Shown here piece by piece: positions 1 to 63,501 of a stretch of 64,000 nucleotides of DNA. The translations under genes and the position numbers were made by a program. A model generated the notes under the pieces. It was not told where the DNA came from and did not search any database. It was given only the letters and a program-made list of their open reading frames with translations. The DNA comes from Chrysomallon squamiferum (lineage: Eukaryota > Animalia > Mollusca), in contig CM022673.1 in NCBI GenBank assembly GCA_012295275.1, forward strand, positions 1,178,001 through 1,242,000. Reading direction: 5' to 3'. Within the stretch, counting starts at the first letter, position 1, and each line of letters opens with the position of its first letter.

Positions 1-411
1 AATGTACACTTTACACTGTTCAAAGAAACATGAGATAAAACACAATTAAACCTGAGACAGTGTACACTTTCTGGATGAGTTCTTGTGTGCAACGTGATGA
101 ACACTGTTTTAATTGATAGTGTTTGTGTAAATACCTTGGAGTTCATTAAAATAACATCTTTGATAAAAATATTAAAGCAAAACAAAAAATACAAAATAAA
201 GTAAAATGATATAAAAAAAAAACAATAACAATAAAAGTTTAATGTTGTATATTAATATATGTTTATATTAACTATATGTTTCAGTGTATTTTTATTTAAA
301 AAAAAAAAATTCTGATTAATTTTATTTTAATTTAAGAAAATTTGATTAAGAATACTGCAAAATTAGTTTGATTTTATACAAATGAATGCAAAAATACATC
401 AATAAACATAA

Positions 412-1317
412 TTATAGATTATTATCTATTTTAATCTTTTTGCCTAAAATTGATATACTTGTTGTAGTTGTTGTTGGTGATGTAGTTGGAGACACATCAC
501 AGTTGAAACGTCCATCCATTGAATATCTCTGTTTCATCACTGTATAGGCTTCAATTAACTTCTGGTCACAGTTTTGAACTCTTGGTTCCATGCAGTTTAC
601 ATACTGTTCAAAAGCTCTGAAGTAAATAAAGAAAGAAAGAAAGTTTGAAAAGGAAGAATATAAAGAAGAATAAATATCATTATGCAACATCAAACATTTA
701 GTTCATTTGTGTTTGCACCTTAAGATACTCAAAAACAGGACTGTTTATTGAAAGTAAAGATGAGCTGCAATAAAAACTCACATTTGTGCATTGTTCTTAA
801 ACATTGGTTTAAAATACATATTAAGTAAATAATAGTAATAAGCAAATAAGCAAATACATAGAAATGATACTTAGTCCTGTATGCTCATTTGATTCATCTC
901 AGTTTTAAATCTTTTGTTTTCTGTAAATCAAGAACTGAAATATCTGTTTATTCATTATTACAACATTTGACTTAAGTCACACAGTACATGTTGCTGTCAA
1001 CAAACAAAACGTGAACTTTTAAGTCAACAAAAATGTTACAAGCTTAAAGCTGGAACATTCTTTAGTGCATGACAGCTGAGAAAAATTCTCATTGTTCCTG
1101 CTTGATGAGCATTTTCGTTTACATTACATAGTCAGCCTGGGTTGTTATTGATTGAAACCTTCCATGACAATACAGTTGTTTTCTAATTTGGAAGTAAATG
1201 AATTTCAGTTATCTGGTAAATGTGAGATTCACTTTGTGGGCATTCTTGATTTGAAATCCGCTTCACACACTCTCACACACACAGACAGACACATAGACAC
1301 ACACACACACAGACACA

Positions 1318-1355
<38 letters not shown>

Positions 1356-4300
1356 TATACTACACACATTAAATTATATAACTAACAGGAGTAAAGTAAC
1401 TGCTAGGCATTTTGTTTTATAGTTTAAACAGTTTACTCAAACACCTGGTCAATTAAGTAACTGTCAGGTAAACTGATGGCAAACATGGACATCTCCTACT
1501 GTTTTGAGACGAACAAATCAACATTGATTCAGAGAAATTGTCGCGACACATCTTTATATGCCTGAACCTTTTGTCTTTTGTTGCTTCTTACAGAGAAGAT
1601 CTGTGTGGTGAAGAAACAATTAACAAAGTCCTAGATTAGTAGTCATTTCGATGAAATAACTTGGAAGATGTCATCATGTTTGAATTAGTTTGAACCAGTC
1701 TGTGATACGTTACGTAAACAGCAGTTAACATGTCATTTTATTTAGTAATGGACAGATTCACAGAAACTGAATTTATATTTGTTGTTATGCTGATTAATTA
1801 CATTGTGGATAGGTTGATATACAGAAGTAATGTCATCATATTTGACTTAATTAACCACATCATGGTTAGTCATAATTATTTCCTGTAATTTGTAATTTTA
1901 TTTAAGTTAATTAACAAAGTTGATAGTAGATGTATAAACGGTATGACTTGTAATGACATGATATTTGAATTAAAAACTAATTCATGGTTAGTCAAGTACA
2001 TAATTTTCTAGTAATTTGTCATTTTGTTCATGGTAATCAAAAAAATTGTCAGATTTGCAGGAATTAACTTTTAATTAACAAATTTGTAGATTGGTAGAAA
2101 CATAGATGAGATAAACTATAATGCTATCATAGTTAAGTTAATTAACCAATTCATGATTAGCTACATACATATTTATTTTTATTTATCTTAATTAACAAAG
2201 TTAATAATGGTCAAATTTTTGTCAGTAATTTCAGATAGACAGATACATACAGAGGAGGAAATTATGGTCATCTTATTTATCTTAAAGTGTATTTACTTGT
2301 AATAAATTATTTGGTTTGTTAATTAACAGTTGTAGGTAGTCTGAGGAGATAACTTGTATTATGTCTAAGTTCATTAACAGTTTTATGGTCCGTCAAATAC
2401 ATAACATTTTGTTTGTTACATTTCATTATATTTTTATGACTTAATAAAATTAAAAATGGACAGATAAATAAGAATAAACATTTAATTAGGTTCACCTTAA
2501 TTAACAAAGTAGTTGATAGATGCCTTGAGGAGATGATTTTCAGTAAATCATCATATTTGAAATACGTAAATAAATAATAAATTTGAAAAAAATGTTTGAC
2601 AGTTTTATAATTTTACAGAAAATGTGTTATATTTATTGCAGAGTGTAAAAGTAAAATGCATAGAATTAAATTTCTTTAAGTCTTCTCCAGTTTGAAAGAT
2701 AGAAAAAGCAACGCATAGAAAAAGAAAATAACTTGTGTAAAATGCTAATATTGCAGATGCCTGTTTGGGTAAAAAGCTAAAACCTTGTGTGCAGCAGATA
2801 TGTGTAAACAAATTATGTGCAAACATGCAAATATTTTTCTTTGTGCATTTGCAGCAATTTGTAAAAATGTTTCACCTTAAAATCATGTCACTTCAAAAGT
2901 TATTGTGCTTTACAAAACAATGGTAGTTGTACTTTAAATATTTACTGTTCTTCACACTTTGTGGATAATTTAGAATCTTAGGATTATTAGTGTGTGTGTG
3001 TGTGTGTGTAAATTGAAATTATAATTCATATTTTTCTAAAGAAGTTTATTTATTTATATTTTTGACTATCATAATTTATTGAATTTGCTGACAGTTATTA
3101 ATTTTATTTTTTATTATTCAAAATAATTTTCAGACTTAAATAAAATTGTTTTAGTATTTGAAAAGAAATATTTTATAATTATTTTTAAAAATATTGTTTT
3201 GTTTTGTCATATTTTGATTCTGCAGGCATGATGTTAAAAAAAGAATTGTAATTTTCTTTTTAGCTGTTATTTTAACTAGACATTTTAGCTATTTAAGATA
3301 TCTTTGCATTAAAAAAAATAAAAAGTTATTTTTATTAATTTTAAATATAGATAGAGTCAATTATTTCTTTTTAAAGTTTTAAATATTTAAGAATGTTGTC
3401 AAATAATTTGTTGTTTTCATTATATATAACACATTTAAATAAATAAATAAATAAATCAATCTGTTTTACTCTAAAACATCTAAGATATTAGAACAACATA
3501 AGTATTTAAGAGTGTTGTGTCGTTTGTGTTACAACTGTATCAGTGATATGTGGTAACACTAAGTGTTTAATTACATGTTTCAATGTAAATAATTAAAAAA
3601 ATACGTGACATAGGAAAAGTGTCTTACTGGCATATCTGATAGTGTGTTGAATGAGGGCTCTTGCCTGCCCGGTTGAGGTTTTCACGAGGTTTGCTGCATG
3701 CATAGAGAGCTTCAATGACATTCTTATCACTGCAGCCGTGACTGACTGAAAGAAAACAGAAACATGAAAGTTATCACATTTGAATAACCTGCCTTTCAAA
3801 TATGCTAGTCATTGCAGAACAATATTTATAATTTTCTAAAATGCAACCCAACATGTTATATATTTTTACCACATATGTTGGAATTAGTCGTGACGTTCAG
3901 TGCAGACAATAGCTGTTCAAATTGGGAACGTTGTTTTATGAAATCTTATTTGAGCTATTTCTTTGTCTTAAATGTTAGAATAAAAAATGAAGCACCTTTT
4001 TCTTTTATTTTTAAAATGATTTTTTTTTTTTTTTTTTTCTTGTCCATATTGGGACTATAATATATGAAATATATGTTAATTATTTCTTTTGTCTTTAAAT
4101 ATGTCATATAATATGCATTTTTTAATCTATTTATTTATTTTTATTTTTTTATTATTATTTGTCCTACCAATATAATTTCTGAAAAATGTATTTCAGTTTT
4201 CACCTTTGCGGATTGGGAATATAATTTCTGAAACATGTTGACTATTTCTTTATCTGAATTTTTGTAGTTTTCTTTCTTATTTTTTTCTTTTTATTTTTTA

Positions 4301-4692
4301 AGGGAGAAAGTAAAAACATTTGTATTAATACATAGTAAGGGCCACAATTTTTAAAATGTTTATTTCATGACCTAATGCACATGTTTTATCTTTTTTGTCC
4401 CAAACTATTACATCATGTATGAATTAACTGACAAATATTCAGATATATCAAATTAATATGAGTGTTTTGCTTCATTTTATAAAGTTATTCACAAAATATT
4501 TTCCATTATAACATTATTATTTCTTGGGTGGTTTTTTGTTTGTTTTATTGTGCTATTATTATTATTATTATTGTTATTTTATCATCATTATCATATCAAT
4601 ATTGTTATTATTATCATCATTATCATTATCATTATCCTCATCAATTAAATTATTATTATTATTACTATTATGATGATGAAGATGTTTTAATT

Positions 4693-4744
<52 letters not shown>

Positions 4745-5542
4745 TTATTGTTGTCATTGACATTAATTCTTTTGTAAATTCCATTTTTCTTCTTTTGATT
4801 TGAATATACATACTGATATTTTGTATCCTGTTTGTTTGAAAATATTCCAGTGAAGCATACAAATTATCTTATTCAAAACACTGTTGGGTGTGAGACAGGT
4901 AATGGCCATGGAGGTAAACTTTAATTGTTCTTGTGCAGTGAAGTTGTGTTTGTTCTGATGACTTGTCTGAAAACGACAGGTCAACTTGGAAAATCTCACC
5001 AGCATGTTGGTGTTGTTGTTAGTTTTTAATTTTTGTTTTTTTTCTCTTCAAATTACCATGATGAAGTGGTTACTCACATTTTCACAATTTCTTTTGCTTC
5101 GTAAAACATTTCATATGATCATACAGCATTCTGTGAATTTTGTGATGCTGTTAATAATAAATTTTGTTTCAAATGATTATTTTTGTATTTAAAAATCAAG
5201 ATATTTTTTTCTTTTAATTTATTTTGTTTTACTTCATAAAATATTTCCCAATGAACCAGAGCATTTTGCATATTTTGTCATACAGGTAGTAATAGGTTTT
5301 ATCTCAGAGGGTTATTTTTGTATTTAAACATCTAGATATTTTTTGGTTTAAATTATTTTGTTTTGCATTATTCATACCAGTTGATGATGATTTGAAAACA
5401 GTAAAATAATGGAATGTAAAACCATTTCCCACAGTTACTCAGAAACGAAGTAAGATTTCTTTTTTAACCCATTTCAGATTTGTTTCCTTGTTTAAAAGAT
5501 TTACTCATATTAAATCATAGGAAAAGTATGCTACTATTATAA

Positions 5543-5593
<51 letters not shown>

Positions 5594-6311
5594 AAAGAAC
5601 ATAAACAAACAGTAAGAAAATATTATTTATTTTCTTATATATTTATTTAATTTCTTAATATTATTACTATTATTATTTTGGTCTTTTAGATAAATAGTAT
5701 TTATAGAATACTTATAGAAGATAATGAATCAACTGTATATCTTAAATAATGCAATTAATTATTTTCTTTTGTTGTTTTTTGTTTTGTTGATTTTAATTGT
5801 AACTGTAAATAAAGGATAAGAAATGTCATTGAAATGATAATAATAATAATAACAATAAAAACAACTATAAACAAAAACAGTAAAGTAAAATAAAATATAA
5901 GTAAACATAAATTAAAAATTAATTGAATGTAATTATTAAAATCTTAAGTGTGATTATGGTTACATTTAACAAACATGTCAATGGCAATTATTTGATGTCA
6001 CTTTGCAGCATTTGAATGTAAAATTCTTTCAAGAAACTTTAAATAAAACATTTTATAAACATTTTAACAATAAATTTAAAAATAAAAAGGAAACAATAAT
6101 TACTTTTTTCTTTTTCAAATTACAATTTTACATTTTTTATAATAATAAAATAATAATAAATATAATAAAAAGAACAAATGAAAATCCCAAAATATAAATA
6201 TTGTTTAAGTATATGCCATGTTTGGAATGTTTGTTTTGTTGTAAATAACATGTACTTACTCTGTGTTGTTAATCCAAGCAGAAAAACGCTGATATACACC
6301 CACACAGCCAT
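412..6311 (-). CDS. Small secreted 6-cysteine protein (neuritin/RGM-N-like Cys spacing), 3 coding exons, nested antisense in MINDY intron
   Basis: Exons 6311-6260 (ATG..A|gtaagt), 3745-3628 (ttttctttcag|..|gtaaga), 616-412 (tttacttcag|..TAA). Phases 1 and 2 match. 124 aa: MAVWVYISVFLLGLTTQISHG-CSDKNVIEALYACSKPRENLNRAGKSPHSTHYQICQAFEQYVNCMEPRVQNCDQKLIEAYTVMKQRYSMDGRFNCDVSPTTSPTTTTTSISILGKKIKIDNNL. Signal peptide, 6 Cys, Thr-rich stalk. 3' end uncertain. Confidence 0.8.
1265..1368. repeat. (CA)n / (CAGA) microsatellite
   Basis: Directly visible CA run with interruptions. Confidence 0.9.
4555..4741. repeat. Compound (ATT/ATC)n and (CA)n microsatellite
   Basis: Directly visible; generates the spurious ORF 4528..4803. 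Confidence 0.85.
5541..5594. repeat. (TAAA)n microsatellite
   Basis: Directly visible. Confidence 0.9.
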
Positions 6312-7370
6312 GTTGTGATTAACAATCCAGAGGTGTTTCATCTTCTTTCTTTTTCCTTTTCTTAAAAAAATTTTGGTTTTCAAAGCAGGATTTCGGTGTT
6401 GGCAGAATTTTAATATTTATCCTGGTTAAATTCTTGCTGTATCACACGCTTCACAAAACAAGCATCTCTGTTTGGAATGATTCGAAAGATGTCTTTAAAC
6501 ACTTACACGTTTCTACAATAAATACAGTCAGGGGGGAAAAAACCCCACCTTAATTCGTTGTAGACTTAAAAACTTTTGCTTCTTTTAATTTTTAAAATTG
6601 TTTATTTTTTAAAATTATGATTTCATTACCAATCACATTTCAGAAATCTTTTCAAAAAAAATATAATATCTTTAACGTCCTTTTTCTTGTTTTTGCGGTT
6701 TCGAAAATTCTTTTGAAACTGTTCCTGACCACCCTTGTGGGATTTTAAGAGGAAGACCTTCCAGGTGAACACAACTGAAGCCAGGATTGTTTGTTTGTGT
6801 ATTGAAGTTTTTTGACGCAGTTCTTTGCCCAATGCCGAAATTCACAGGAAGTCGCAGTCAACAGTGAGCAAATTTGTGATAGCTTAAAAACGTAGAAGGG
6901 TTTTTGTTGCAGTTCGTTGCCACTTGTACCAAGTTCATAATTAGAAGTCGAGACCCAATACTATTTGACCATTCTCTCCTGTCACCAGAGTCTAATATTT
7001 TCATATTTGTTTTCAAATTCTCTTCGTTTAATTTATGAAGAAATATTTGATTTAAGTCAACATTTTTTTTTTTTTTTTTTTTTTTTTGTACCTTAGTTTT
7101 TAAAGATTACATTCAGGATTTTTATGAAAACAATTAAATACCAAAATTTAATTTTTCAAGAGTAGCTAAACTTACTAGATTTAGTTGTGATGCTTTTAGA
7201 AGTATGTAATAGTTTTCAAGAGTTCAAAAGCTTCATTTAGTATACTAGAAAATGTAATCATTATTTCACCTTTCACTATTTTTCAAAAGAAATATTTTTT
7301 TCTTGTCTTCTATGTAAAATTTTAACAGAAAATGTAATTATTGTTAAACCATTTTTTCCATAAAGAAAAA

Positions 7371-7414
<44 letters not shown>

Positions 7415-8424
7415 TTAATAATTAAGAGTAATATAAATATTTTTTTCATTCATTTTCATTTTCATTTTTTTTTTCTAAAGTTAATTTCCAAAATAATTTT
7501 TTTTTCTTGTCTCATCCGTGATATTTGTTGGAAAATGATTTATAAGCATACAGTGAAAAATCAACTCATCTGGCAGATCCAGTTTACCATAATGTTATTA
7601 CTGTGATTATCAGCTTACCTTCATGTGCAAATATTCATTCTTTGAAATGGAACACATTTACAAAAGCCTTGAAAAGTTGTCAGTTTTATTTGGTTATGTT
7701 TGAAATTAATAAATGCCAGAAACAAACACAGAGTGAGCAATTTCATTGTTCAGAAGGAAGGTGATGAAGAAGAGAAGATAAAGAAGAGATTTGGGGAGTA
7801 GAGAGAAATGAGAAGGAAACAACTATATAGGTAGACTGATAGATAGATAATAACTAATAATAATAAAATAAAATAAAAAATAATCAGAACAGCTACATTT
7901 TATTTAAAATTTTCTTTTTGTGGCAACTATTATTATCTTATTTACTTGAAATTGGCATTAATAATGTTTTTTGACATAACAAAAAGAAGGAAAAAAATCT
8001 TTTAGAGAGGAGCAAAAAAAATCTTTTAAGAAATCTTTTAAGGGGAAAAAAAAAAAAAAAGATGTTTTTTACAAAATAATTCAGAAAACGAAGTTTTTGA
8101 ACCAGTAACCCTCTCCATGTGTCTTTAGGAAAAGCCTGCAGAGACGCATTGATCATCTTTGATTTAAAGGATTTCTCCAAGTTTTTACTTGTTTATCAGT
8201 CAACAGAGAAAGTGGCCTGTGTAAACAAACATCCGCGGAGAGATTTGTTGATAAATATATGTCGCTTGCTCACACCTGGACGTTTGGTTCACCGTGTTAC
8301 CAGACTGAATCATCTCATGTCAGAAATTCTAGCAGTAACATTTTTAAAACACCATTTAGACATCTTCGTGATTATCATCCAGTGTTGAAATGTAGTTAGT
8401 TGTTTGGTGAATTTCAGTAGTCTT

Positions 8425-8728
8425 TGGAAATAACTGTTGTTAAACATTAAATGCATACTTTAATTTGTTAAAAAGTAATTTGTGAATTATGTGTCAACAG
8501 ACTTTTCAGAAATAAATATTGTTAAACATTAGATACATGCTTTAATTTGTTGCAGTTTGTGAATTATATGTTAACAGACCTTTTAGAAATACTGTTGTTA
8601 AACATTAAATACATACTTTGATTTGTTATAAAGTAATTTGTGAAATATGTGTAGACAGACTTTTTAGAAATTACTGTTGTTAAACATTAAATACATGAAT
8701 TAATTTGTTGTAAAATAATTTGTCAATT
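8425..8728. repeat. ~80-bp minisatellite, ~3.6 copies
   Basis: ttaaacatta recurs at 8440, 8522, 8598, 8680 with conserved flanks (aatttgtgaattatgtgt..acagactttt). Confidence 0.85.
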
Positions 8729-9384
8729 ACATATCAGTTTTCAAGATACAGGTAAAACAAATATTTTTAGATAAGTATAATTTCTTCATTTTTTTTTATT
8801 TCTGTGATTAAGACATAGTCTTAAATGAATTGATCAAATATGCCTAATTTTTTCAACAGTGATAAAAAGTTTAATGTTCAAAATAAATAAATAATAATAA
8901 TCAAAATAAAAAATTAATGAGAAGACAAAGAAATTGAGCTGGTTACAATATATTGTATTCAGTTTTAATAATTTTGACAGAATTGTTTATCTTCATTAAA
9001 AACATATATACAAAAATATTTCCTCAAAAGTGAAAAATCAACAGTAGAAAGAAATAAAGAAAAAAGACAAACAAGCTCAACCCCACCCAAAATAAAACAC
9101 AAAGATATATTATAAAAAAAATTCACAATAATAATACTTTAGCTAACAAAAACAATAAAAAAAAAAAAATAAAAAAAAATTGAAAAATAAAATAACAAAC
9201 AGAATAAATAAGCAAAACTAAATAAATAAAGAAGAAACACTGGTAGTGATACTGATACATAAAACAAATCAGTAATGTGTCCATGTCCTATATCCAGCTG
9301 ATATTCTACTGGTCCCATTTCACAAACACATCGTTTTAAAACCTCAGTTTAATTTTTTTAACATTTAATTTTTTTTAATTTCAG

Positions 9385-12266
9385 AATGAACTGTTTCTGC
9401 TGATAACTGACCAGGGTTTTCTCACAGAGAGCAATGTTGTCTGGGAAACACTGTCCAACGTGGAAGGTGACTGTCATTTTGTCGATGGCAATTTCCGCAC
9501 ATACACAAAACCTGAACCATCATCTGCAGCTATCGCAGCATCAGAACTTCCCCTCGGAAGTGACCAGCAGATAGATCAAGAGTAAGTGTGTTTTTTATTA
9601 ATTAATTAACTGAATATTATTATTAATACTGTTTTTATTGTCATTTTTATTTTGTTTTATCTTATTTATTTTAAATAATTAACGTGTGTTTCAATATTAT
9701 TGAATTTTAAAAAAAAAAATAAAAAAAAAAATTTTTATCTTTATATTATTGAATGGTTTTTATTTTTTGTTTATATTGATTATTATTTATTATTATCAAA
9801 AGTTTGTTAGTAATTTGTTAATATAATTATATGTCAAATTCTTCTACTTTAAAGCAAAAGGGAGGAAAAAATCACAAAAAAAGACATCTCTAAGAAAGAA
9901 AGAAAAAAATCCATCCCACACCATATTATAATGAAAAACTCCAACAAATAGAAAAAAAAAAAAAATATATATATATATATATATATCAACTCCTGGCCAA
10001 AACTATTTTTCCCCCCCCAAAACCTACAGTTTTTAAGCCATTCTTGGTTTGTTCATTCAGTGCACAAGGAAATCAATTTTCTTTAGGCTAGTTCTTGAAA
10101 ACTAAAGACCAACATAGTCAGAACCTTTTACCTTGGGGACTTGTGTTTTTCTTGAACAGAAGTTTGTCTCTAATCCACGCTGTTATCTATCTGTGTACAC
10201 AGAAGTAAAGGAGGGAAGCCAGATTGTTTCAAGTTCTTAAACTTGGCTCTCGGATCATCAAGGCTGAACACGCCAGCATACCTGGGCGGATTCTGACTGT
10301 TTGTTGTTGTGCTGTTGCCTGCTTATGGCTCATTGGAAAATCGAACAAGTTATTTAAATGTGATAATATTTGCTTCAACTTTTGCACACATTTAGTGAGA
10401 ATTGTGGAACTCTTCAAACAAGAAAAAAGTGTACAAAAAAAACACAAAAAACATCAACATCCTGTACAGTTATTAACTCTTGCTCCAAAACAAACAGAAA
10501 TCCTAAGGTGTTGTGCCGTGGAAAGTGGCCTGTTTTAATTGATAAAGTCCATCATGTGGTTTACGTAGTTGATTTGTGTCATTTTTTGTCTATACAAGAC
10601 TTGCATTTCATCTTGAATATTACATGCATTCAGGACAAAAGCTTTTGTTTAAAGAGTCTGCAAGAATTTTAAGATTTTAAATTGAAACAGTAATGTGGAA
10701 AAAAAAAAAAAAATTAATTTACTTGATAAAAATAAAATAAACATGTGGTGTGGAATCCCAGTCCCACAAAAAAACCTGAACCCCCCCCCCAAAACCAAAC
10801 AAAGAAAAAACAAACCAAAAAAACCCTGAAACAAACAAACAGCCACAAACAACTAACCTACAAACTATTATTAACCCGAAAAAAAAGAAGAAAAAAAAGG
10901 AATCTAATAAGTAAAAATAAATGAAAAAATAAATGTCATTAAGATGATTAACACATTTCTACATTAATTGTATTACTTTTATTATTGCATGAATTTAATG
11001 TATTTACTTCTTTTTTTTTTAACTTTTTTTTTTTACAAATTCCAAAAGGCACAAAAGACTATCATTGATAAGAAAGGAGAAAACATCTAAAAATATCTAA
11101 AATATAAGAATACTGAATTTGTGTTCTGTACAATCTAATTACCTGTAACAATATTTTATCTCATTTTATAGCTACCAGGTGGCACTGTCACTGCAACAGG
11201 AAGTTCAGCTGAGAGATGAAACGGCAGATAACTGGGGTCAGTGTGAACAGAATCAAAGTGACATGCAGCTGGCCGAGTTAGTACTTCACATTTTTAGTTT
11301 TATTTTAATTTTGTTTTATCTTTGTCTGGGATAAAGAGAAATTAAGAATTTTGGAAAAGAACACCTACATTGCAGTTGATAATTTTTTTAAAGAATTATT
11401 GACAAATTCATTTTATTTTATTAAATCTTTGCGTGGGTCACAAGTAACTATTCCCTCTTATCACCTTTTATGATAAACAACCCCACTGTTTCATTGGAAT
11501 CTGCATTTTACTTTGATTTTTCAAGAATTGTTAAATGTAATGACCTTTCCTCAGCAATACAAGCAAATATTTAGTTGTAGATATTTTAAACCAAAAATGT
11601 CTAATTATCACAGATAAAGTATAATCTGTGAATCTTTATTTGCTGTCAGTCATGAACTGGCCAGGAGACTGCAAGAGGAAGAGGACAGGAGAGCTGCAGC
11701 AGCCAATGCTGCTCATCAGAGGTCATCTCAAGGTTATGCTTCATCTGCACAAGGTCAAGGCCATTCATCATCACATTCCTCGTCATCTCGACAGCGAGAA
11801 AGACACGAAAGACGAGAACAAGAGAAAGAAAAAGTAATTGATATTTATTTTCAATAGACTAGGCAAAAATAATCTATTTTAATGGATTATTTTCTGATAA
11901 TTAATACTTTTGGAAACATGTTTGGTACTAGTAGCCCTGATTTGTATGGCTTAGAATCAGCTTCTCTCTCAACATCTTTCACTATAATGATTCAATCTCA
12001 TTTCAATAATTATTTTTGGTTTATGCAATTTTTCAGTCTCACTCTTTATTTGTACATTGTTAGCTTTGCTTGTGTAACAACTTCTTTTTTTAATTATTTT
12101 CATTAAATACTAAATCATTTAAAATTGTTGCTGCAAATCTTTTATAGCAGGTAATGTTTCCTGCTGCCTAGTAATTTATTTCTAATTATACGTGTATATT
12201 GGTGTTTGTGTACAAATTTAATAAACGACAAAACTGTTTTTGTATTTTCAGTGCATTATCTTGTGA
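9385..12266 (+). CDS. MINDY2: Ubiquitin carboxyl-terminal hydrolase MINDY-1/2 (FAM63) family, last four coding exons; 5' part lies outside window
   Basis: Exons 9385-9581 (NELFLLITDQGFLTESNVVWETLSNVEGDCHFVDGNF, matches the MINDY1/2 C-terminal catalytic-domain motif), 11172-11276 (DYQVALSLQQE, MIU), 11650-11833 (DHELARRLQEEE, MIU), 12252-12266 (CIIL*, CaaX). Phases consistent. MINDY1 and MINDY2 cannot be distinguished here; probably a single co-orthologue. Confidence 0.93.
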
Positions 12267-14115
12267 CGGGAATGGCAGGATCCACAGTGCTTTCAATTAC
12301 TATCCTTGGACCGAACAACTTTATACCTGACGCAATCTATCCTTGAAAAAGCGCCACTCTGTGTTACCTCACAAACCATCAATTTGAGGCCTTTGGTTTG
12401 AAATCATGATACCACAGATGGTGATAAAGCTGCTTCACATACTTGGGTAATGGGCATGATGGACAAATATTTTAACCTTTTTAATTTATACTTTTTTCAA
12501 ATTCTTCTTTTCACGCATGAACAGTCAGAATCTGTGGTCATCATTTTTTTTTTTTAATTATTATTATTAGCAAACAATTGTGAATGTATTTAAATTTGTC
12601 TCTTTCTGACATATTAACAGAACCTTTGTTGAAATGAAATGGGTATAAAAACTGAATCATGATTGTGGTTTTGATTGGTTCTTTTCATACACTGTTTTGT
12701 ATGACTAATTTTTATGTGAATCGTAAAAGGCAATCTTTGTATGCAGAATGAATAATCATGTTTTAAAATATTCTACATCAAAGATTACTGTGCTAGAGAT
12801 GTCTCTAAAAACAATAGTCTGTCTCTCCCTCAAGCTCCCATGCTGTTAAATTTAGTGATTAAAGGCAAGGGATGTGTAACATGCACCTTCCCATAGAAGA
12901 AATTCATTGTGGGCACAGAATATAGTATAATTTGTGAGTCATTAAAAGAAAATGTATTTTGTGATGGAAATTATACACTATGTTAGAATTTCAAGCTGAA
13001 TCTAGAATTGGTCGTAAGCCACAGTTCTCAACAACCACTTCAAAGATTTCATTTATAATGTTCTGTGAAGTTTAGGTTTTTACATTTTGCAAAGTCTGGG
13101 AAAGATAAAAGGAATTTCTGACAGGAAACAGAGAAAAAAACAAACTCTGTAATTATATATAAATAATATTATAAATTTATTATTTTTAATTTTACATAAT
13201 TCATTCAAAATAAACAGATGTTCAAAAAATCTATGTATAAAATGGTTGATTTTCTTTTCTTTCTTTTTCACAATTTCTGTTAAAAAATAACAGATTATTA
13301 AAAACATTACAACAGTATAATGTACACTAGGTTTTTTGTTGTTTTTTCTTGGCTTTATTTTTTATGATTGCAATTTCTAGTTCTAAATCATGTAAACTAA
13401 TTTTTAAAACAACTATTCTTTTTAATGGTCTGTATATGCAAGTGAACATTTCTATTAAAATTATTTATCAGTTTTTACTAAGTGCATCAATGGATTTAAA
13501 GAGAATTGTAATGAAATTGTTTTCTTAAATGATTCCCTTTGTTTGTATTGTTAAAATTAAAATTAATAATTCATCATAAGAATAAAATAAGATTAATTTA
13601 ATATACACATACGCACAAGAAAAAGAAAATATACATCAATAACATCTATATAAATTTTCTACATTATAAAAATTCTGGAATAATGAAAAAAATATTTACA
13701 TTTCTATATACAAATAAATTATGTTTTTGTAATAAAATATATTATTTTATGATACAGTAATATATATGAAGTCAAACCTCTACACTATTAAGTAAAATAT
13801 GGACGGAATGATTAAAATTATGAAAATAGAAAAACATTTTTATAAATTCAACAAAAATTACATGCTTTCACAGAAATACATACAAACCAAAACACAACTA
13901 TTATCAGTAAATAATAAAAACCTTTAGGTTTGCAGGATTTTTAAAATCATAAAAATAATGCATCTTTATCAGTAGAAGAAAATAGCATTTTTAATTCACA
14001 AAAACAAAAAGCCAACTATATCATTTTATATGAACTAATTAATTATAAATGAAACGAAGATTATTAGTATAGAAATGCAGTTTGTATTAAAAATATCAAG
14101 GCTATGTGAAAGCTA

Positions 14116-17100
14116 TTAATGTGCTGTCCATATTACACAACAAAGATAAGACACAACCACATCAAAAATCAAAATGAAGCGACTGAAGCTGAGATTAGGT
14201 GCTGTTCCACTGAGGAAGGGATAGAAGAAATCGTACGGCAGTTTGGCCAGGAAAAGTGGAGCTTCCCCTTGGTACCCAGTGGCTGGCACTGACACATCAA
14301 CAAAGGAAACAGAACTGGTAATCTCCACTCTCACAAAATTATTCTCCGTACCAGGCTGACACTGGAAACCTATGCACTAATCAAACAAATGTAAAGAATA
14401 AACAAATATAACAGAAAAAAAAAACTTAGCGTTGATATTTTTTTCTTTTTTTCTTAATTTCTTAATTTATTATAGGGTCGTATTCATGATTAATAGCAAT
14501 ATGGATGACATGAGAAAATCCTTGTTATTGGTCACTCTTTAATAAAAAAAATTTCAAAACAAGGGATACAGAACTTCAAAATCACTTCCTTTGATGAACC
14601 AGTTGTGTGATACAGGATGGAGCAGGAATATTCTAAGTAAAATAACATTCTTTGCAAATGTACAAAATAATAATTGATATAATTAAGTTAGAACCTAATC
14701 CATCCATTGAAATTTGTGATCATTGGAATGTTTATATCAAAAAATTATCTCACACTATTAATAGCTGCCCACTATATCATCATATATATATATATTAATC
14801 TACCTCAAATGTAATAAAACAGACAATTTAATTGTGTCAGAGACCTGTTTAATCTGGTTCAGATTATTTTCAAATTTAATTTTAGTAAGATACTCGATCA
14901 GCAGATAATCCATATAAAAACAACTTCTTTTCAAAACCTGCTGTAAAACTGATATTATGATTAAAATACAACTGAATAACACAATTTGTTTAGTTTAAAC
15001 TACATTGAAACTAATTAAAATCTGGAAGGAAAAAAACAAAAAGAAGTGATATGAAACATTTGAACTACATTTTGTATCTTTACTTACTTTGAAAAAGACA
15101 TTTTTTAAAGAAAAAAGAACAACAAAAAAAAGAAGATATAAAACATCTGAACTTCTGTTTATAATTTTACTTACTTCGAAAAAAACATCTTGTTTATTAT
15201 CGTAAATAAAAGACACACCAAGTATTTTGGCCTGAGGGTTTGCCAGAGATCCCACATTGGCATACAGTATCTGTATGTGCATGCCCAGAGACAAACTGCA
15301 AGTATATTCACCTGCCTGGAAAAAACAAAACAAAAGAAAGTATAAAAGATATGAAAATTGTTTTTGGGATAATATTAACATCATTTTGTTAGTATGTATT
15401 ATTTTTAGCAAGTTACAGTTGTTCACATAAAAGCTCATTAAAAAAAAAAAAAAAAAAAAAAAACACCCCAGTATTTAATATTCAGTTTGTCTTACAATTA
15501 AAATGAACAGATGGTAACTGCAGTTGTCAACTGACAAAGAGGTAAAAAAGAGAAAAAGAAATTAACATCAACTCATTACAAAATATGTATATCCAACATC
15601 AGATTTTTGTTTTGTTTTTTTAATGAATTTTTATTTTAAACACCTAATCCTGTATTGTTTTATTTTGCAAATGGTTTTATGTCCACTTTGGAAGTTTCAA
15701 GTTTTTAGGTGCTTCTCTGCATCTATAATTACTTGGTATTGTGCATTTTGGACTGAAATATATTTTATTATATTCAGCAAAATATTTATTCTGCTTATTT
15801 AATTTTAATTGTAATAATTAACAAAAAGAAAAATTTTAATTCTCACAACAATGGATTTTGGTACATTCTGGAATATAATTGGAACCCAGTCACCAACTTT
15901 CATAACATCAGCATTTCCAAATATTGCCACAAAACGCTGATCATCTTTTTTGTAAGCTCCCTCCAAAGCATTAACAATAACTTCTTGCAGCAAACTGCAA
16001 AACTGAGACATATTTGTTTGTTGAAATCTGAAAAAAAAAAAAAATTCCTTTTGTTTTAAACTCAACTGATTCATAAACCACTAATTGTACAATCTTCACT
16101 GTATTGGTTTGATTTAACTACTGCTACCAACTTCAGTTACTCTTCTTTTTAGTTAAGAGCAAGGGATATTTTATATATGACAGTGTCTACCACATTAAGT
16201 GAACATAATGAACACAGGTGGTGTAGTTCAATAATAAACATTCAGGGCAACATTATGCTTTAAAAAGATTTAGATAATTAACACATTCAGTAAAGCATTT
16301 TGATCAAATAAACACACTCATTGGTAACATGCTGATCTAAAATAAATAAGAAACATTCTGATCTAAAATAGAAAAACAATTAAAATACTCAATGAAGCAT
16401 TCTGATTCAAAATATATAAACAAACATACTGAAAGAAACCTGATTTAAAACAGAAAAATGATAAACATAGTGAAACATCCTGATATAAAATAGAAAAACA
16501 ATAAGCATACTCAATGAAACATTCTGATCTAAAACAGAAAAACAACAAACATACTCAATGAAACATTCTGATCTAAAGGAGAAAAACAACAAACATACTC
16601 AATGAAACATCCTGATCTGATATCCTCTCCAAATCTAACTGAAATTCTTCCCTTGTTTGCGTCTGTGATACAGTTACCTTGTGCAGACGCTCTCACCACT
16701 GTAAACCACTGGTCCCGATTTTCATTTAACTCAATTTTACTTCTAGTGTTAAAGAATATAATGTAGAAAAAAACAGTTATATTTGTTACTTAACACTGCT
16801 CTTTAAATGAATGACACTAAAATGAACCAACAAGACAATAATTTAAAAAAGGAATAATGATTAAAAAACCAAATGTTTAAGCGTTTAGTTGTTAAAAAGC
16901 ATGATGGAATTTATTAGTTATTTGGTTTGTGTATTTTTTGGTAGTGGTTTTAGCAAGTGTTACAGAAAAGAATTCACTGAACTGAATACTGCAATTTACA
17001 GATGTTAGATTCTTTGTTTGTTCATATATTAAACAGAAAATACAACATATTAATTAATTTGATTAACTTTTCTACTAAGTCTAACATAATGTTGCTTCTT

Positions 17101-17823
17101 AAAATGAAAATGCATTCCTTAGTGATTACATTTTGTTATGTGATTTTCTTATCTGCAAAAGTTGTTCACTTATATGCTGTATTTTATTTTACGCATAGGT
17201 TTTCAACCTGAGGGTATGTTTTAGCTTTTTTCAACTTGACATGGAAGGAGGAATAAATAAAAACATATAGATAGGTTTGGGACCCTTCGTAGTGAATATA
17301 GATTCCTTTTGTACTGTCTTTGGTTGATGAAAATATGTTAACCCTAGATATTATTCAATCAAAAAATGTATAGGGGTCATCTGTCATACTGAGTTGCTTG
17401 TAAGGGGTTGTGGAATGAAAAAGGTTGAAAACCAATGTACTAAAGGATACACAGAGTTGACTGCTGGATCAGTTGAAGGTGAAGTTCTCAATATTCCGGC
17501 CATGACTGGCTCACCTACGACATAGCCCGGGTTGCCACTTCTTTTAAATGGTAAATTACCTCCTGTCTGCTGAAACTGTTAAAAAAATAATAATAATAAA
17601 GTAAAAAAAGATAATAAAAAAAAAAATAAAAAATAAAAAAATAAAAAAATAATAAATAATAGTAATAATAGTAATAATAATAATAAAAAGAATACCTTTT
17701 TTTTTAAACTTAAAAATAAAAATAAAAGTTTAGCAGTAACGAGAAATGCAATTTGGGAACACAAATTTCTGCGCTTTATTTAACAATCAAATCATAAAGT
17801 TAATTTAATATGAAATTATCTTT

Positions 17824-17854
<31 letters not shown>

Positions 17855-18591
17855 TTGTTATTATTATTATTATTTTTTGTTTTTGAATTGCTGGATTTTT
17901 ATTTTTTGTTACTTACTTGTTCAAACTCAGTAGTGAAAACTTGAGGAATCAGGTTTTCATTCATGTTTACATTATACAGTATGAATTGTGCCCATACATT
18001 AGTGATACCATAGGTACCATTGTACTGTATTCTGTATCTCACCTGAAAAACAATGACATTATTTTAAAACTCAAGAAGTTCTTGTGAAAATAATGAGATG
18101 CTAAAAATGATGAAAATTATGTTTATTTTTTATTTATTAGTAACAAAACAAAACAAAAAAAGATTTCACTGAAGCTGACATATTTAGAAAGAAAATATAA
18201 TTCATCTAATCCCCAAAAGAAAATAATAGTAAATAACATTATAACACACTAACACATCTTATTTAACATACATTATTATAAAAAATAATAAATGCAAGAA
18301 GTAAATTAATATATTTTCACTAATTAAAATTTTAAATAATACTACTTACTTTTTTAACCACATTATCACACCGATTTGCTGTAGTGTTCCTTCTGGGACT
18401 GCTGATTGTACAGTTATAGAACAGGCCATTATCATCCTCACAAAGTGTCTGTTCCAGCCCCACCCCAATAGTGTACGAGTTGTTATACAGATCAGTCACA
18501 TTGGGCAGGAATATGGAATTTGGACCTGTGCAATATGTAAGGCAAAAAGCATAATAAATATCCAATTTAATATTACTTAATTATTCATTAA

Positions 18592-18638
<47 letters not shown>

Positions 18639-21584
18639 TGAAACAGGTTATAAAAAAAAAAAAGAGAGAGAGAGAGAAAAAATTAGGTTGAGTCTAAAAA
18701 TGTCCATTTTGTGGAATCAATCCAAAATATAACTGTTTAAATTTAATCACTTATTCACAGAAATCCTAAAAAATAATTTAAAAACCTCAAAGAGTATAAT
18801 TTTTTCACAAACAAACAAACAAAAAATAAAATAAAAAAATTAAAAAAAAACATGAACAAATAAAAAATAAGATAAATATTATAATAATAATCATGTCTGT
18901 TTCTCTCAGTGCAGTATTTTAACAAGTGATTGAGTGTTTTGTGAAGCACTTTATTAATTATTAATATTCTTTGGAAGTGAACTTAAAACTACTTAAAATA
19001 TAGAAAATAAAAATCTCTTAATTAAAATATATATATTTAAAACAGTGTGGAAATAATAAAATGATGATAATAAAATATTTTTAAGAAATAAACAAAATTT
19101 AAAACACACAAAAAATGTTATTTTAATTTTATGTAATAAACAAAACCCAGATTGACTTCAGTAAGCATGTAAGTGAAAAATAGATTCATGTTTCATTCTT
19201 TGTTTCACAACAAAACAAACCTGAAGTGCCGTAAGCAGGTACCGTAAAGACAAAAGTATTGTTCACAGTCAGGTTATGTTCAGGAATGTATGTCCCAAAC
19301 AGAGCTGGTGTCTGTAAGAAATAAAAAGATACAACATTCATCTTTTCTTTCTTCTAACAATTTCTCAGAAGAAAAAAAATAAATCAATAATCTACATCAT
19401 TCTTCTTCTTGCTGATACGGATCAAGTGAGTGTGTATGAATGCACGAATGTTCAAGTCTGTCTCTGAAACAGTTATCAAAAGTAATGATATTAGTAGATT
19501 TGTTTGAATTTCAGAATCAGATTAAATGAAACAAAATGTTATTAGAAAAAGAATCATTCAGTGGACTGAACAGATATCCACAATTTACATTTCTTGTGTA
19601 TAATCTGACAGATCAGACAATTTTTGTTATTTTTTTATTATGCTTCAGAATTGAGACTACACATTGAACATCAAAATAAATCCATAATTTTATGCACAGA
19701 CTTTACAAAATTAAGAATAATAAATTATTTAATAGAGATAGCATACTGAATATCAAAACTTAATCCATTATGTTAGTTATAATAAACAAAAAAAAAGGAA
19801 AACAGAAAAAACTCACTGTAACAACTCTGAATTTCTGATAGTAGGAACTGGAGTCTAGCTGTTTGAGATTTTCACAGTCACTGGAAAGGCTCACTCGTCG
19901 AACACACTCATTACTTGATTCAATAAGGTAAGCTGAAACAATTACAGAAAGCACAATTATTTCGAAATAATTATCAATTACTAAGTAATGATATTTTCAT
20001 TGTCTAAATTTCACATCTAAATTATAAATTTATTGTCACTGTAGACTGGTTAAAATGTGCATTTTGTTTACAGCATTTAGGAATGTGTTGTATTACCAAT
20101 TAAATGCTCTTAAAAAATCACTACATAATCAAACAACAAACCTGCTGGATTTGCATCACTGCAAAGTGTTGAGGACAAGGCTTTTGGCTGACCTAATTTT
20201 CCTGTCGTCCGCGACTCATACACAACTAGAATTGCATCACCTGACTTCATAAATAAAAATTAAAAATTAAAAATAAAAATAAAAATAAAGAAATTCATGA
20301 TAAAGAAAGAAAAAAATAAATAAAAAATATGATTAATAATGATAACAAGAACAATAATAAAATTAAATAAAAAAACCAAAACAAGATAAAAAAAACAACA
20401 AAGTTATGATTAAAGGTGAAAGAAAAAAAACAGAGTTGAAATAAAATCCTTATTGTAATTAAATACTTAAGCATTGCAGTTTATGAAATTATGTCTTAAA
20501 GAGTAACTGCAGGAGCTGTAATGTCACATTCTTGGGTCAACTTTTATTATTAACTAAAGATGGTTTCAAGAACAAATAGAACAAAATCTTTAACAAGTTT
20601 ATTTTAATTATGTATGTGTGCATCTACAACACAGCTCAAACTAATTAAGGTGAAACAAAAATAAGAACATCACTGAAACTTACTTTATAGTAGCCTGAGG
20701 CTTCTTTTGGTGGTTCAGGTTTAGGTTGAAATGAAAAGCTTGGAAATTTGTTTAATTGTCTGTTAAAATCATTTTCTGTATTCACCAAATCTGGGTTCAT
20801 GTAGAAATTTTTTTCTTTATCTAAAAAAAATAAAATAAATTATGATGAAATTTAAAAAAAAAGGATAATAATAAAAAATATAATAATTAATTAAAAAAAA
20901 ATATATATATATATGTATGTATATTTTTTTTTAAGACAAAACTCACTTAAATTGTGTGAAATAACTGCATCAGCATTTTTACTTATAAAAGTTACTTTGA
21001 TACATAAATGTTTACTTACAGTTGTTAAAGTAAATACAAAACAAGTCATTTGATGTGACATTGTTCTGATACGGGATATTGTTAATCAGTATTATTTCAC
21101 TCTTCATACACAACTTGTCATCAACACTGAAATAACAAAGTGAATAATTTACTTTAAAAAATATCAGAAATAACTATTATTTATAAACAATTATTTGACT
21201 GACAAATTTGGTAATTGTGAACCTTAACTTTTTTTTGTGGGAGTCCATCTAAATATATAAAAAAAAATTAAAATCAGTTACATGAAATAACGATGTAGGC
21301 TAATATTATGAAAAACATCATAAATGCATACGTAAAAGAAAATGGAAGGCAGAAGCTAAATGATTTTTTATCATCTGCTGAACAGTCATCATCACAGCAG
21401 CAGTTGACATCACAGGAGAATGTAGTCAAGTCGCAAGGACATGGTCCAATATCTGAAAAACATTAATAATGAATTTCAATATTTTATTTAACACTCAGAT
21501 TATTTTTTAAATTTACATTTAAATTTTTGTTTCATTATTATTTCTTTTTATGCAGTATTTATTGGTGAATCATTATTTAAGAAG

Positions 21585-21657
<73 letters not shown>

Positions 21658-21781
21658 GTGTGTGTGTGTGTGTGGTAATAATAATAATTATATATATACT
21701 GTTTTTTCTTTAATTAATTAATAAAATTAATTATAAATTTTGCCATATAAATGATATATAATAATATATAATTAATTATTA

Positions 21782-21821
<40 letters not shown>

Positions 21822-22167
21822 GTGTGTGTGTGGTAATAATTAATTATATATTATTATATATGGCAAAATTTATAATTAATTTTATTGTAAAACTATTTAA
21901 ACAGTTAATGAATTAGCTAAAATAACCTCGGTTTTCTGCAATCGGTGATGGTGGTTGCGTAGTTGGAGCGGGAGTCGTTGTGGTCGTTGGAGTTGGTGTT
22001 GTGGTCGTTGGAGTTGATGTTGTTTGGTTCGTTATGCTGGCTTGAGGTGTCGTGATATTCTGGCAGTATGTAGCTGTCAGAAGAAAAAGACATACTATGG
22101 CAATATAAAACGGCCTATCACTGCATGAATACAGCCTGTACCTGCCGAAACCTGAATGTGCCGCCAT
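14116..22167 (-). CDS. TCTN1: Tectonic family ciliary transition-zone protein (TCTN1/TCTN3-like), 14 coding exons, ~689 aa
   Basis: Exons 22167-21927, 21452-21332 (CPCDLTTFSCDVNCCCDDDC), 21126-21020, 20820-20684, 20244-20142, 19932-19817, 19311-19221, 18525-18350, 18042-17917, 17575-17451 (RSGNPGYVVGEPVMAG), 16742(or 16739)-16599, 16027-15847 (VAIFGNAD..DWVPI), 15315-15175, 14376-14116 (LPYDFFYPF + hydrophobic tail). Signal peptide present; all phases match. Paralogue assignment (TCTN1 vs TCTN3) uncertain. Confidence 0.93.
15020..15195 (-). repeat. 87-bp tandem duplication spanning the Tectonic exon-13 donor
   Basis: gatgtttttttcgaa|gtaagtaaa at 15175 repeated as aatgtctttttcaaa|gtaagtaaa at 15088. 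Confidence 0.75.
16280..16618 (-). repeat. 44-bp degenerate tandem repeat (~8 copies) derived from the Tectonic exon-11/intron junction
   Basis: tcaatgaaacat at 16599, 16555, 16511 (period 44), decaying leftwards. Confidence 0.88.
16743..17450 (-). other. U12-type (minor spliceosome) GT-AG intron in Tectonic
   Basis: 5' site GTATCCTTT (17450-17442), branch-like TTCTTTAAC (16756-16748) immediately before TAG/AAG, no long pyrimidine tract. Confidence 0.88.
17194..17437. mobile_element. Non-autonomous DNA transposon (MITE), hAT/Charlie-like termini, 244 bp
   Basis: 16-bp terminal inverted repeats CATAGGTTTTCAACCT (17194-17209) / AGGTTGAAAACCAATG (17422-17437), 1 mismatch; resembles CAGTGGTTCTCAACCT-type hAT ends; no clear TSD. 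Confidence 0.7.
21587..21886. repeat. (TA)n(CA)n(TG)n microsatellites and ~165-bp fold-back inverted repeat (21720-21886)
   Basis: 21720-21749 is the exact reverse complement of 21857-21886; inner arms also pair around a (CA)n-TATA-(TG)n centre. Confidence 0.88.
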
Positions 22168-22691
22168 GATGTAAACTAACTATTGACTCACGGGTAATTT
22201 ATCTAAAACCATATTTTAATATAAATTATAAATTATTTTTTCATATCATCGTGATTTAATTTCAACCTATGTTATGATATCTGTAATAATATATGTATGT
22301 TTAATTAATTAGCGTAATTTAAGAATAATGATTTATAAACCGTAATGAAATTTAGGTCAATAATAGTGAATCTGTATGCGGATATTTAGCCAGTTTGGGT
22401 TTGTTTGATTTTATTTTTGATTATTACATGTATTTGCTTGTTGAATTGTACTTGAGAAATTTCTTAATTATATTTTTGGTTAAATGAAACTAAATAATAA
22501 AGAACATATAATTTTCTCATTAACTTAGCTCCTCAAATTACCTCCTAGAGTAAATATTTTCATTTATAATATTTATGCAGATTTTTAAATATTCCGTAAC
22601 ATAATTTGCAGCTTTGTGTATTGATTTCATAAAATCGATATAATTCTTACTTTGACGTTAAAAAGAGACGAACAGTTCGGATTTATTGATC

Positions 22692-22726
<35 letters not shown>

Positions 22727-23060
22727 TTTAGAAATATAGGACACCAACGTAACTAGTTTAATCTTTTTCTTCTTTTTTATTTTTATTTCTTCTTTCGTTT
22801 ATTTAAAAATCTAACATTGAAAGTGAAGAAGAACGTTTGCCTTCCCTTTTTCTAGCTTTTTCAGAAAAAAAGTAAAACGTTTTTAAATTCTTTCATCGAA
22901 GTCCGTCTTTTATATTTCAGTGTTTGTTCTGAACTGAGATTAAAATGAGTATATCCGTATTTCATACACAACGAAAGCGCCGATAAACAAAAGAGACCGG
23001 CGGTCTTAGAAGTTGATTTGATTTGGCGTCTGTGGCATATAACAAGGTGTTTAGGTTCGT
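22168..23060. promoter_or_regulatory. Probable bidirectional promoter (Tectonic / uncharacterised gene)
   Basis: Head-to-head genes; local excess of CpG dinucleotides versus CpG-poor introns; YY1-like ATGGCGGC at the Tectonic start. TSSs not defined. Confidence 0.55.
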
Positions 23061-23429
23061 TAGTTTGAATACTGACTACATAACTTCATAAATTCGATTG
23101 ATATCGATTCTGTTGAGTTAAAAGCTATAATATTTCAATGTTTCGTATGAAAAAATGTGTTCATTGTATCGTTTTGAAAATTCTTAGATTCAGACTGTAG
23201 TGCTAAGTGTAGCCAGTTACTGCATGATGTAGGTGTAACATGATCATCTCACATTAGCATCATGTGCACGGTGTTCTAGTATTTGAATTTCAGAAATGAT
23301 GATGATTGTTTAATAATTCAGTTTTCCCTGAATAATAGCATTAATCAGACATTTTAATTTTTAATAAAGAAAATAAAACTATTTCTTGGATATTAAAAGT
23401 AACCACTAAAGAAATGCAGTGGATTTATC

Positions 23430-23476
<47 letters not shown>

Positions 23477-23656
23477 TATCGCATTCATTTTTTAATTTTA
23501 TAAATAGTTACAGAAAATAAAGTTTTGTAGAAAAATAAATTAAATCTCTACACATAATAAATTTATTTCATATATTTTATTCTGATATATACTCATACTG
23601 ATAATTAAAATTTGAGCAAATGTAATTTGTAAATAAAATTTTCAGAACACATCATA

Positions 23657-26160
23657 ATGCCAGTCTCTGACATAAGATGGTCACTGTCTCACCAGCTGCC
23701 TGTGTTTGCTGTGTATGGAACAAAGCGAAAGATAGACTGGCAAAATGAACCAGAGCAAAACATTGATTCAGAGGTTAAATAATTTTTTAAATTTGATTTT
23801 AGCTTTATGATATTTCAGCATATTTTATTAACATGTAGCAGTTCTTTGGTGTCAAGCTTATGTTGTTGTTTTTTTTTAATGGTAAAGTGGTAGAGAAAAT
23901 AAAAAGTACTGTCATCAAAGACTTTTCTTTTTTGTGAACACATTTTCATAGTATTTCAGTAATAAATTATTTATCACTGGCTGAAATTGGAACCAGTCAT
24001 TTGTATCAGCAGGAAACTCATCATTAATTTGTTTTTATTTAATTAGTATAAATTTTTAATAATGAATGATTAATAGATATGAAATGAAATTTTGTTTGAA
24101 AGGCTTTAAAAAAATAAATAATGTTTATATATTTATTGTTTTTATTTCAGTTTAGTTTTAAGACTGAATTGCATAATATAATGTTTGTTGTTTCTTCCCA
24201 GGGGTTGGTTCCTGTTAAAAAACTGTGTTCAACACCGGATGTTCCAGAAAATGGAATGAATGATTTACTTACTCAAAATGTAATTTCTGATAACAGTCCA
24301 GCAAACCAGGTTTGTAACGTCAACCTGTTATCTCTTTTATTAAAAATATGATTTTATCAAAATCACATTGTTTAAAATCCAGTATACTAGATGATAGTTC
24401 TCCAGCAATTCTTAAAAGTAAAAGAAAAGGTTTCAGTGTCACTCAGAAGGATTATTTTCCAGCATTTTTGTGAAATCAATTATTTAAAGTGAAAAGTGTA
24501 CACATATTATCTGTTTTATGTTCTGTTTTGTCCATATTATAATTTTATTTGTTCCATTTTAGGAAAATAATCAACAATCTCATGCTGGTTCTATAGACAT
24601 GGAATCTAGTGATCATGAACTTTGCAACTGGAACAACAATGCATTTTGTCCACAGCAACAGCCTCCAGTAACAACAACTACTCAAAATAATTCAACATTT
24701 GTAAGTGAAAGACAAACTAAACCAGTTTGTCACTTTTTTGTTCGTTCTAGCAAATGGCTATAATTTATACTATAAATAGTAGCGTGGCTAAATACTGAGA
24801 TTTGAAGAATTTGAACAAAACCAACATTTTTGTTCAGGTTCATTATTTGTTCAACCTATCACATTTTTAACAATAAAATTTTATCTGGCTTGATTTATTT
24901 GTTAAATATCTCTTTGGAGGCATATTAGTGAGAGGAAAAAAACTATTACAAAATTTTCAAACCTGACTTACTGAAATCAAGAAATCAAATTGATATTTTT
25001 AGATTACATTATAATTATGCTTCATAATATAAAGCTCCATGATGAATCTATAGAAGGTACAGTATTCTGTTCTGTTGAGAAAACATGTAAGTCTCTATCT
25101 TGAATTAATGTTTTTAAACTGGTAAAACATTTTAATAAATGCTAGCTTCTTGTCTTACAACACAGTGACATATCCACCAGCCCCTATACAAATATTTCTG
25201 TCTAGAGTGGACTTGAGAGTTTTACACAGCATTCTTTTATAGCAGATACATATTAATGTGTGGTCTGTCTGCAATATTAATGTGTGGTCTGTCTGCAATA
25301 TTAATGTGTGGTCTGTCTGCAATATTAATGTGATTCTATCTGCAACACGATAACAGGCTTATGGATAGTATCCTGTTTCTGTGATAAATAATGAACTTTT
25401 AACTCCATGTTAAAAGCTCCCCTTACCCACTTCAGTGAGAAAAAGAATGCCAAGGCACTTGCAGGATTGCCATAGCAACCGTGTGACCAAATTTTACCCA
25501 AAATGTGGCCACATATGGGTGCCTTATCCCAAATAGGTGGATATGTGACTGAGTCATTCAGAAAACTGCATAGCACAAATATGTTGTTTCCTTCAGGCTG
25601 ATATTACCATGGATCTGGCTGAAGAAACACATACTAATACTCAGCTCCCAGCAGAAGCTGAATCTATGCATAATAACATGGACTCAGACTGTGTTCCTGA
25701 TTATCAGCAATATAAGATGGTTTTCTGTGATCCAAATTGTGTGTAAGTTTGATTTACATTTTAAGATTAAATTTTAAATGTATTCATGTTACAAAGTGTA
25801 GAAAAATCTTTAAGTCAAGAATGTCTTTTTTTTCTTCTTCTTTTTTTTTTTAACCAAAAAATTTATCTTTCATTTAGTGATATAAATTTCAGTATGGAGA
25901 CACAACACAAGTCCTTTTTAGTTTCAAAATGATTATTATTTTTTTAATTTTATAACAATAAATGTATTTATAATTTCCTTTTTATGCAAACCTTTTGTTT
26001 GATTCTGGGAGCTGAAGCTTAATGAATTATGAAGTAACATTTAAATAATATTTTCAGGGGTGGTGATAAAAGTCCTACATCTGGAAGAGTGCGATGTTAT
26101 TGCAAGCCATCATGGGAAGGGCTTGATGCTCCACGGCCATATGTATCTGACTATTATTAG
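23657..26160 (+). CDS. Uncharacterised protein, 203 aa, 5 coding exons, largely low-structure/acidic with basic KRK..KK motif and Cys/aromatic C-terminus
   Basis: Exons 23657-23773 (MPVSDIRWSLSHQLPVFAVYGTKRKIDW..; acceptor at 23645), 24202-24309, 24563-24700, 25597-25742, 26058-26160 (..GRVRCYCKPSWEGLDAPRPYVSDYY*). Canonical splice sites, phases 0,0,0,2 match, no internal stops. Confidence 0.8.
25250..25344. repeat. 24-bp tandem repeat, ~4 copies
   Basis: atattaatgtgtggtctgtctgca x3 perfect plus one diverged copy. Confidence 0.92.
25466..25479. promoter_or_regulatory. RFX X-box-like motif
   Basis: ATTGCCATAGCAAC vs consensus GTTGCCATGGCAAC (12/14), ~3.3 kb upstream of the Tectonic ATG. Confidence 0.35.

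Positions 26161-33648: not shown

Positions 33649-33685
<37 letters not shown>

Positions 33686-34041: not shown

Positions 34042-34117
<76 letters not shown>

Positions 34118-37932: not shown

Positions 37933-37996
<64 letters not shown>

Positions 37997-52087: not shown

Positions 52088-63501
<11,414 letters not shown>

Follow-up and report, generated by a model that had tools for sequence, protein, structure and literature searches.

A predicted antisense gene for a secreted six-cysteine protein in a putative MINDY intron of Chrysomallon squamiferum

Three antisense exons and their likely MINDY host

We analysed a stretch of 64,000 nucleotides (nt) from Chrysomallon squamiferum (assembly GCA_012295275.1, contig CM022673.1, positions 1,178,001 to 1,242,000), referred to here as the window, which is AT-rich (24–30% GC). 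At its left end, three minus-strand exons join into a frame for a small protein with six cysteines, and to their right lie plus-strand exons of a MINDY deubiquitinase gene. An earlier sequence-only reading had proposed a hidden antisense gene for a secreted six-cysteine helical protein at this place. Exon signals, an enumeration of possible gene models and the pattern of substitutions all support that proposal.

Coding exon 1 (6260–6311, minus strand, 52 nt) supplies an ATG and the hydrophobic core of a predicted signal peptide, and ends at a GTAAGT donor; a second in-frame ATG lies at 6341, 30 nt upstream of that at 6311. Coding exon 2 (3628–3745, minus strand, 118 nt) follows a pyrimidine tract with a TTTCAG acceptor and ends at a GTAAGA donor. 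It encodes the end of the signal peptide, Cys22, Cys34 and Cys56, together with predicted helix 1 and a long loop. The core of coding exon 3 (459–616, minus strand) begins at a TTTCAG acceptor at 616 and holds Cys65, Cys73 and Cys96, predicted helices 2 and 3, and a Thr/Pro stalk. Intron phases 1 and 2 agree across the exons, and the strong splice sites and compatible phases described earlier are present in the sequence. Read to the stop at 412–414, the product has 124 residues, with cysteines at 22, 34, 56, 65, 73 and 96; this matches the claimed spacing C-x11-C-x21-C-x8-C-x7-C-x22-C. The frame of exon 2 differs from that of the listed open reading frame (ORF) at 3593–3808, as had been stated. 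The hydrophobic core spans residues 3–14 (11-residue hydropathy 2.2–2.4), and small residues at −3 and −1 before Cys22 fit a cleavage site. Judged by hydropathy, the proposed signal peptide is borne out, and we infer that signal peptidase would cut after Gly21.

The first MINDY1/2 exon in the window (9385–9581, plus strand) has an intact acceptor and encodes the end of the MINDY_DUB domain (PF04424 profile positions 228–264 of 264, E 1.2e-11). It begins at residue 392 of P0003, close to the end of the catalytic domain, and is 91% identical to its counterpart in Gigantopelta aegis, 77–83% in Haliotis and 72–73% in limpets. Three further plus-strand exons follow: 11172–11276 (tblastn E 8e-8), 11650–11833 (tblastn E 8e-7), carrying a helical motif that we take to be of the ubiquitin-binding type, and the last coding exon at 12252–12266, with four residues, a CaaX-type end as in P0003, and the stop. 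The three measurable introns between them are about 1.6, 0.37 and 0.42 kb, in keeping with the earlier statement that other introns are mostly under 2 kb.

Searches for MINDY residues 1–391, by tblastn with four homologues and with a profile built from 36 (those of 340–750 residues among 43), found nothing in the window. Both methods thus agree with the claim that the upstream exons are absent from 1–9384. The same search did recover the less conserved downstream exons of 35–39 residues at E < 1e-6. No host exon was detected among the antisense exons, the best profile match inside 1–9384 having an E value of 7.6 or worse, and short MINDY motifs gave one chance match among ten. No MINDY locus was found in metagenome contigs. 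Because residues 1–391 are absent from the window while exon 9385–9581 has an intact acceptor, a long host intron is suggested (1–9384, plus strand, at least 9,384 nt, with its 5′ end beyond the window). The simplest reading is that the complete gene lies, on the opposite strand, within an intron no shorter than 9.4 kb. Nesting, as claimed earlier, is therefore half seen: the 3′ host exons and the missing residues agree with it, and the left flank lies outside the window. From the sequence, we consider nesting highly likely.

Nested genes of this kind are common in Drosophila, where 9.5% of genes are nested, mostly on the opposite strand and with little co-expression, according to the available text of PMC3814207. 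As in the cases described there, the guest here has introns, lies opposite to a conserved host within a long intron, is fast-evolving and is probably narrowly expressed; the present case differs from that survey in its partly visible host. Opposite-strand guests in long introns of broadly expressed genes are frequent and seldom co-regulated with them, and the nesting here is probably passive.

The host introns contain other features. Short degenerate tandem repeats occur at 8422–8792 (units of about 80 nt) and 1830–2580 (about 130–300 nt apart). GC-rich islands (44–50%) occur at 6691–6990, 8191–8330 and 10121–10360. Neither Pfam nor Rfam gave a match to them, and the island at 6691–6990 might be the promoter or a 5′ untranslated exon of the nested gene.

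Coding signals and transcripts

Gene models were enumerated over 1–9384 under fixed rules: an ATG with a hydrophobic first exon, GTRAG donors, pyrimidine-rich YAG acceptors, at least 110 residues and at least six cysteines. The minus strand gave this model alone (from the ATGs at 6311 and 6341), and the plus strand gave none. Among 300 local dinucleotide shuffles, one produced any model and none produced a model with C-x8-C-x7-C. The rules were written with knowledge of the model, so that significance is overstated and no exact P value is given. These data show that the three-exon model is not easily obtained by chance.

Composition and substitutions were also consistent with coding. Exon 2 forms an island of 48% GC between introns of 23–27% GC. 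A sequence run of unrecorded nature (X5), 95–99% alike, has contigs that cross the exon borders unspliced, and all five of its listed differences fall within exon 2 (3671–3738; 5 of 118 positions). In the claimed frame four of the five are synonymous, the fifth being at −2 of the signal cleavage site; in the frame of the listed ORF, one is. One plus-strand frame also makes four synonymous, but it contains five stops. Random placement of the same changes gave at least four synonymous ones with P = 0.021 (P = 0.019 with CpG context matched), in a test that rests on few changes (n = 5) and on a run that might represent an allele or else a close paralogue. As a separate observation, the neighbouring intron sequence, contig ends apart, shows no listed difference in X5, and three of the five changes touch CpG.

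Codon tests gave mixed results overall. Against shuffles, exon 1 (P = 0.046) and the exon 3 domain (P = 0.02) stood out, and exon 2 did not (P = 0.22); against intron frames, exons 1 and 2 and the stalk scored above the 95th percentile, with the exon 3 domain just below it.

Four RNA runs of one study contain 6–14% of the sequence words. The sequence-only reading had proposed a check by junction reads. In three of these runs, over 3580–3850 only, there was no spliced read: two were empty, and the third gave a depth-2 contig passing from exon 2 into the intron unspliced, possibly derived from DNA or from host pre-mRNA. Splicing was thus not borne out around exon 2 in this one study, whose small assembled libraries cannot refute a tissue-specific gene.

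The missing spliced reads, and the failure to find any homologue in the databases searched, would be expected if there were no working gene, the frame being a decayed pseudogene or chance GC-rich intron pieces. The left flank beyond the window would likewise allow a real gene that lies merely beside a MINDY fragment or misjoin. Against the former stand the intact splice sites and frame, the enumeration, the GC island and the synonymous bias; against a dead fragment, all four visible MINDY exons are intact, the first being that with 91% identity to G. aegis. Either situation is improbable, and the antisense frame is very probably a real gene.

The C-terminus and the relationship to known folds

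The C-terminal end of the protein, beyond Thr110, probably differs from that first drawn. The last 15 codons and stop (412–458, minus strand) have an intron-like composition and could represent read-through past a donor at 458: they score −0.47 bits per codon against an intron median of −0.48, and GC falls at 458 from 33–42% to 10–20%. The donor itself, GTATAT in phase 1, is weak and non-consensus. Further on lies a candidate last exon (20–157, minus strand), with a pyrimidine tract and AG at 157 and GC back to 28–40%. Within it, frame 103–20 has the layout of a glycosylphosphatidylinositol (GPI) signal, with small residues, about nine polar residues, 15 uncharged and mostly hydrophobic residues, then a stop; equally hydrophobic ends occur in 17 of 374 non-coding frames of at least 25 codons. 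Donor 458 joins this frame only through weak acceptors at 81, 66 or 51. The acceptor at 157 opens a different frame of 51 codons, which runs off the window and has no Pfam match.

A real gene could instead end at 412 and encode a soluble secreted protein of 103 residues (about 11.7 kDa, isoelectric point 8.6). Such a protein might serve as a ligand that diffuses, as a decoy, or in mucus or matrix, and would be among many Cys-rich secreted proteins specific to the lineage of this snail. The frame reaches that stop without extra splicing, the donor at 458 departs from consensus, and five AATAAA/ATTAAA hexamers follow the stop, as expected in such AT-rich DNA. However, the last codons are intron-like, the MINDY gene here also uses non-consensus donors, and the GPI-like frame lies 350 nt beyond 458. 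The soluble form is unlikely on these grounds, and the original description of a secreted protein ending at 412 is probably wrong. Because of the fall in GC and codon score at 458 and the GPI-like frame 103–20, a GPI-anchored product is slightly favoured over a soluble one.

Helices are predicted at about residues 25–35, 59–70 and 75–88. A fold search placed RGMC-N and RGMB-N within the top 50, with a weak match to RGM-N covering helices 2 and 3. Profiles scanned against single exons gave no match to neuritin (PF15056, at E up to 1 or 10), DUF19 (PF01579) or CPG4 (PF15481). Of the likeness to neuritin and RGM-N proposed earlier, the cysteine spacing, the helix layout and the weak fold match stood, and sequence profiles lent it no support. 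The modelled features suggest that a neuritin/RGM-N-type fold is probable. The invertebrate DUF19 and CPG4 proteins are also comparable, being small, secreted or GPI-anchored, with Cys-braced helical modules. Their general plan of signal peptide, helical Cys module, stalk and GPI end would be alike, and they too have lineage-specific sequences that lack the BMP-binding residues; the antisense product has a single module, and its single exons do not match their profiles.

Neuritin (NRN1, NRN1L) resembles the antisense product in having a signal peptide and a single small six-Cys helical domain. Both share the C-x8-C-x7-C core and a long Cys2–Cys3 loop, with outer spacings that differ by 2–5 residues. 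The antisense product differs in its inserted Thr/Pro stalk and in a GPI end that is only probable. Neuritin is GPI-anchored or shed, as described in the available text of PMC10123642. The single six-Cys domain, signal peptide, small size and probable GPI end would fit an ancient true NRN1 orthologue, kept in the MINDY intron across molluscs and acting in neurite growth and synapse maturation. Yet residues 73–90, compared by eye with the neuritin 83–100 peptide given in the same text, have only the Cys in common and a few conservative matches, and the single exons do not match PF15056. Such orthology is doubtful. In the literature searched, which included few subscription papers or supplementary gene tables, there was no account of this gene or of molluscan neuritin.

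RGM-N domains (RGMA, RGMB, RGMC/hemojuvelin; PF06535; PDB 4UI1, 6Z3M) have three helices and three disulfides, as predicted here. Their last four cysteines are spaced x8, x7 and x21, against x8, x7 and x22 in the antisense product; the Cys1–Cys2 spacing is x4 against x11. The register was set from the fifth Cys, which we take to lie just before the RGD motif. In this register Leu77 falls at the position of the RGMB pivot Leu103, the sole residue kept of the RGM set that binds bone morphogenetic protein (BMP). The α2–α3 linker reads Asp74-Gln75-Lys76 where RGMs carry RGD or RGN, and Ala80 replaces RGMB His106, which stacks on a ligand Trp (PMC7354924, available text). The same text reports disease and weaker BMP2 binding as effects of Gly and Leu changes in the RGM linker. 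If the product were an RGM-N domain on its own, occupying the type I receptor site of BMP/GDF as co-receptor or decoy, the Cys spacing, the fold-search hits and Leu77 would agree. This is very improbable with the loop and the His missing, and an RGM-like BMP co-receptor role is not supported. No RGM C-terminal Neogenin-binding domain was found in the window, where no model extends more than about 40 residues past Cys96 except the 51-codon frame that leaves the window.

Proposed role and neighbouring genes

Taken together, we propose a nested antisense gene for a secreted, surface-tethered domain of the neuritin/RGM-N type, with three helices, three disulfides and a partner other than BMP, at a probability of roughly 0.5. 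A gene of at least three exons would be transcribed and spliced from inside the MINDY intron. With the signal peptide removed, the helices would pack as one bundle braced by the three disulfides, and the Thr-rich stalk may be O-glycosylated. A fourth exon would supply the GPI signal for anchoring at the cell surface, with release from the membrane by phospholipase, by analogy with neuritin. The product, whether tethered or shed, could then be a ligand or co-receptor; a surface-ligand role is evenly balanced. Everything after the reading frame is inferred, and the figures for this proposal and its alternatives overlap in part. Weighing against it are the lack of spliced RNA, homologue and neuritin profile match noted above, the partly visible host, the non-consensus donor at 458, and a three-exon model that itself has no GPI signal.

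The antisense gene probably adds one database-invisible member to the neuritin/RGM-N-like helical proteins of invertebrates, a loosely known class, and the case shows a route by which such genes escape both ORF tracks and protein databases. A bolder possibility, which we regard as unlikely, is that the gene is the counterpart of neuritin in protostomes. It would then encode a three-helix cue with a GPI anchor, and its antisense place in this MINDY intron would go back to the gastropod–cephalopod split. If nesting were conserved in cephalopods and the proteins grouped with neuritin, the MINDY intron would offer a way to locate, by position, orthologues whose sequences have diverged too far to be found by similarity. 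Neuritin-type surface signalling would then be older than vertebrates, and testable in molluscan neurons.

To the right of the antisense gene, the window holds MINDY (plus strand), a Tectonic-like gene (minus), an acetolactate-synthase-like gene (minus), an MFS transporter (plus) and a kinesin (minus). The Tectonic-like gene (about 13000–24000) lies tail to tail with MINDY, with PF07773 just under the cut-off; its first exon (21913–22179) encodes a signal peptide and is Thr/Pro-rich. The acetolactate-synthase-like gene (about 25000–39600) was recognised by eye, three pieces giving no Pfam match. The kinesin gene (about 53000–64000) matched PF00225 (E 1.9e-5). The MFS transporter exon (42767–44728, about 650 codons) carries a Thr/Ser/Asn-rich low-complexity insertion of about 300 residues between its two membrane parts.
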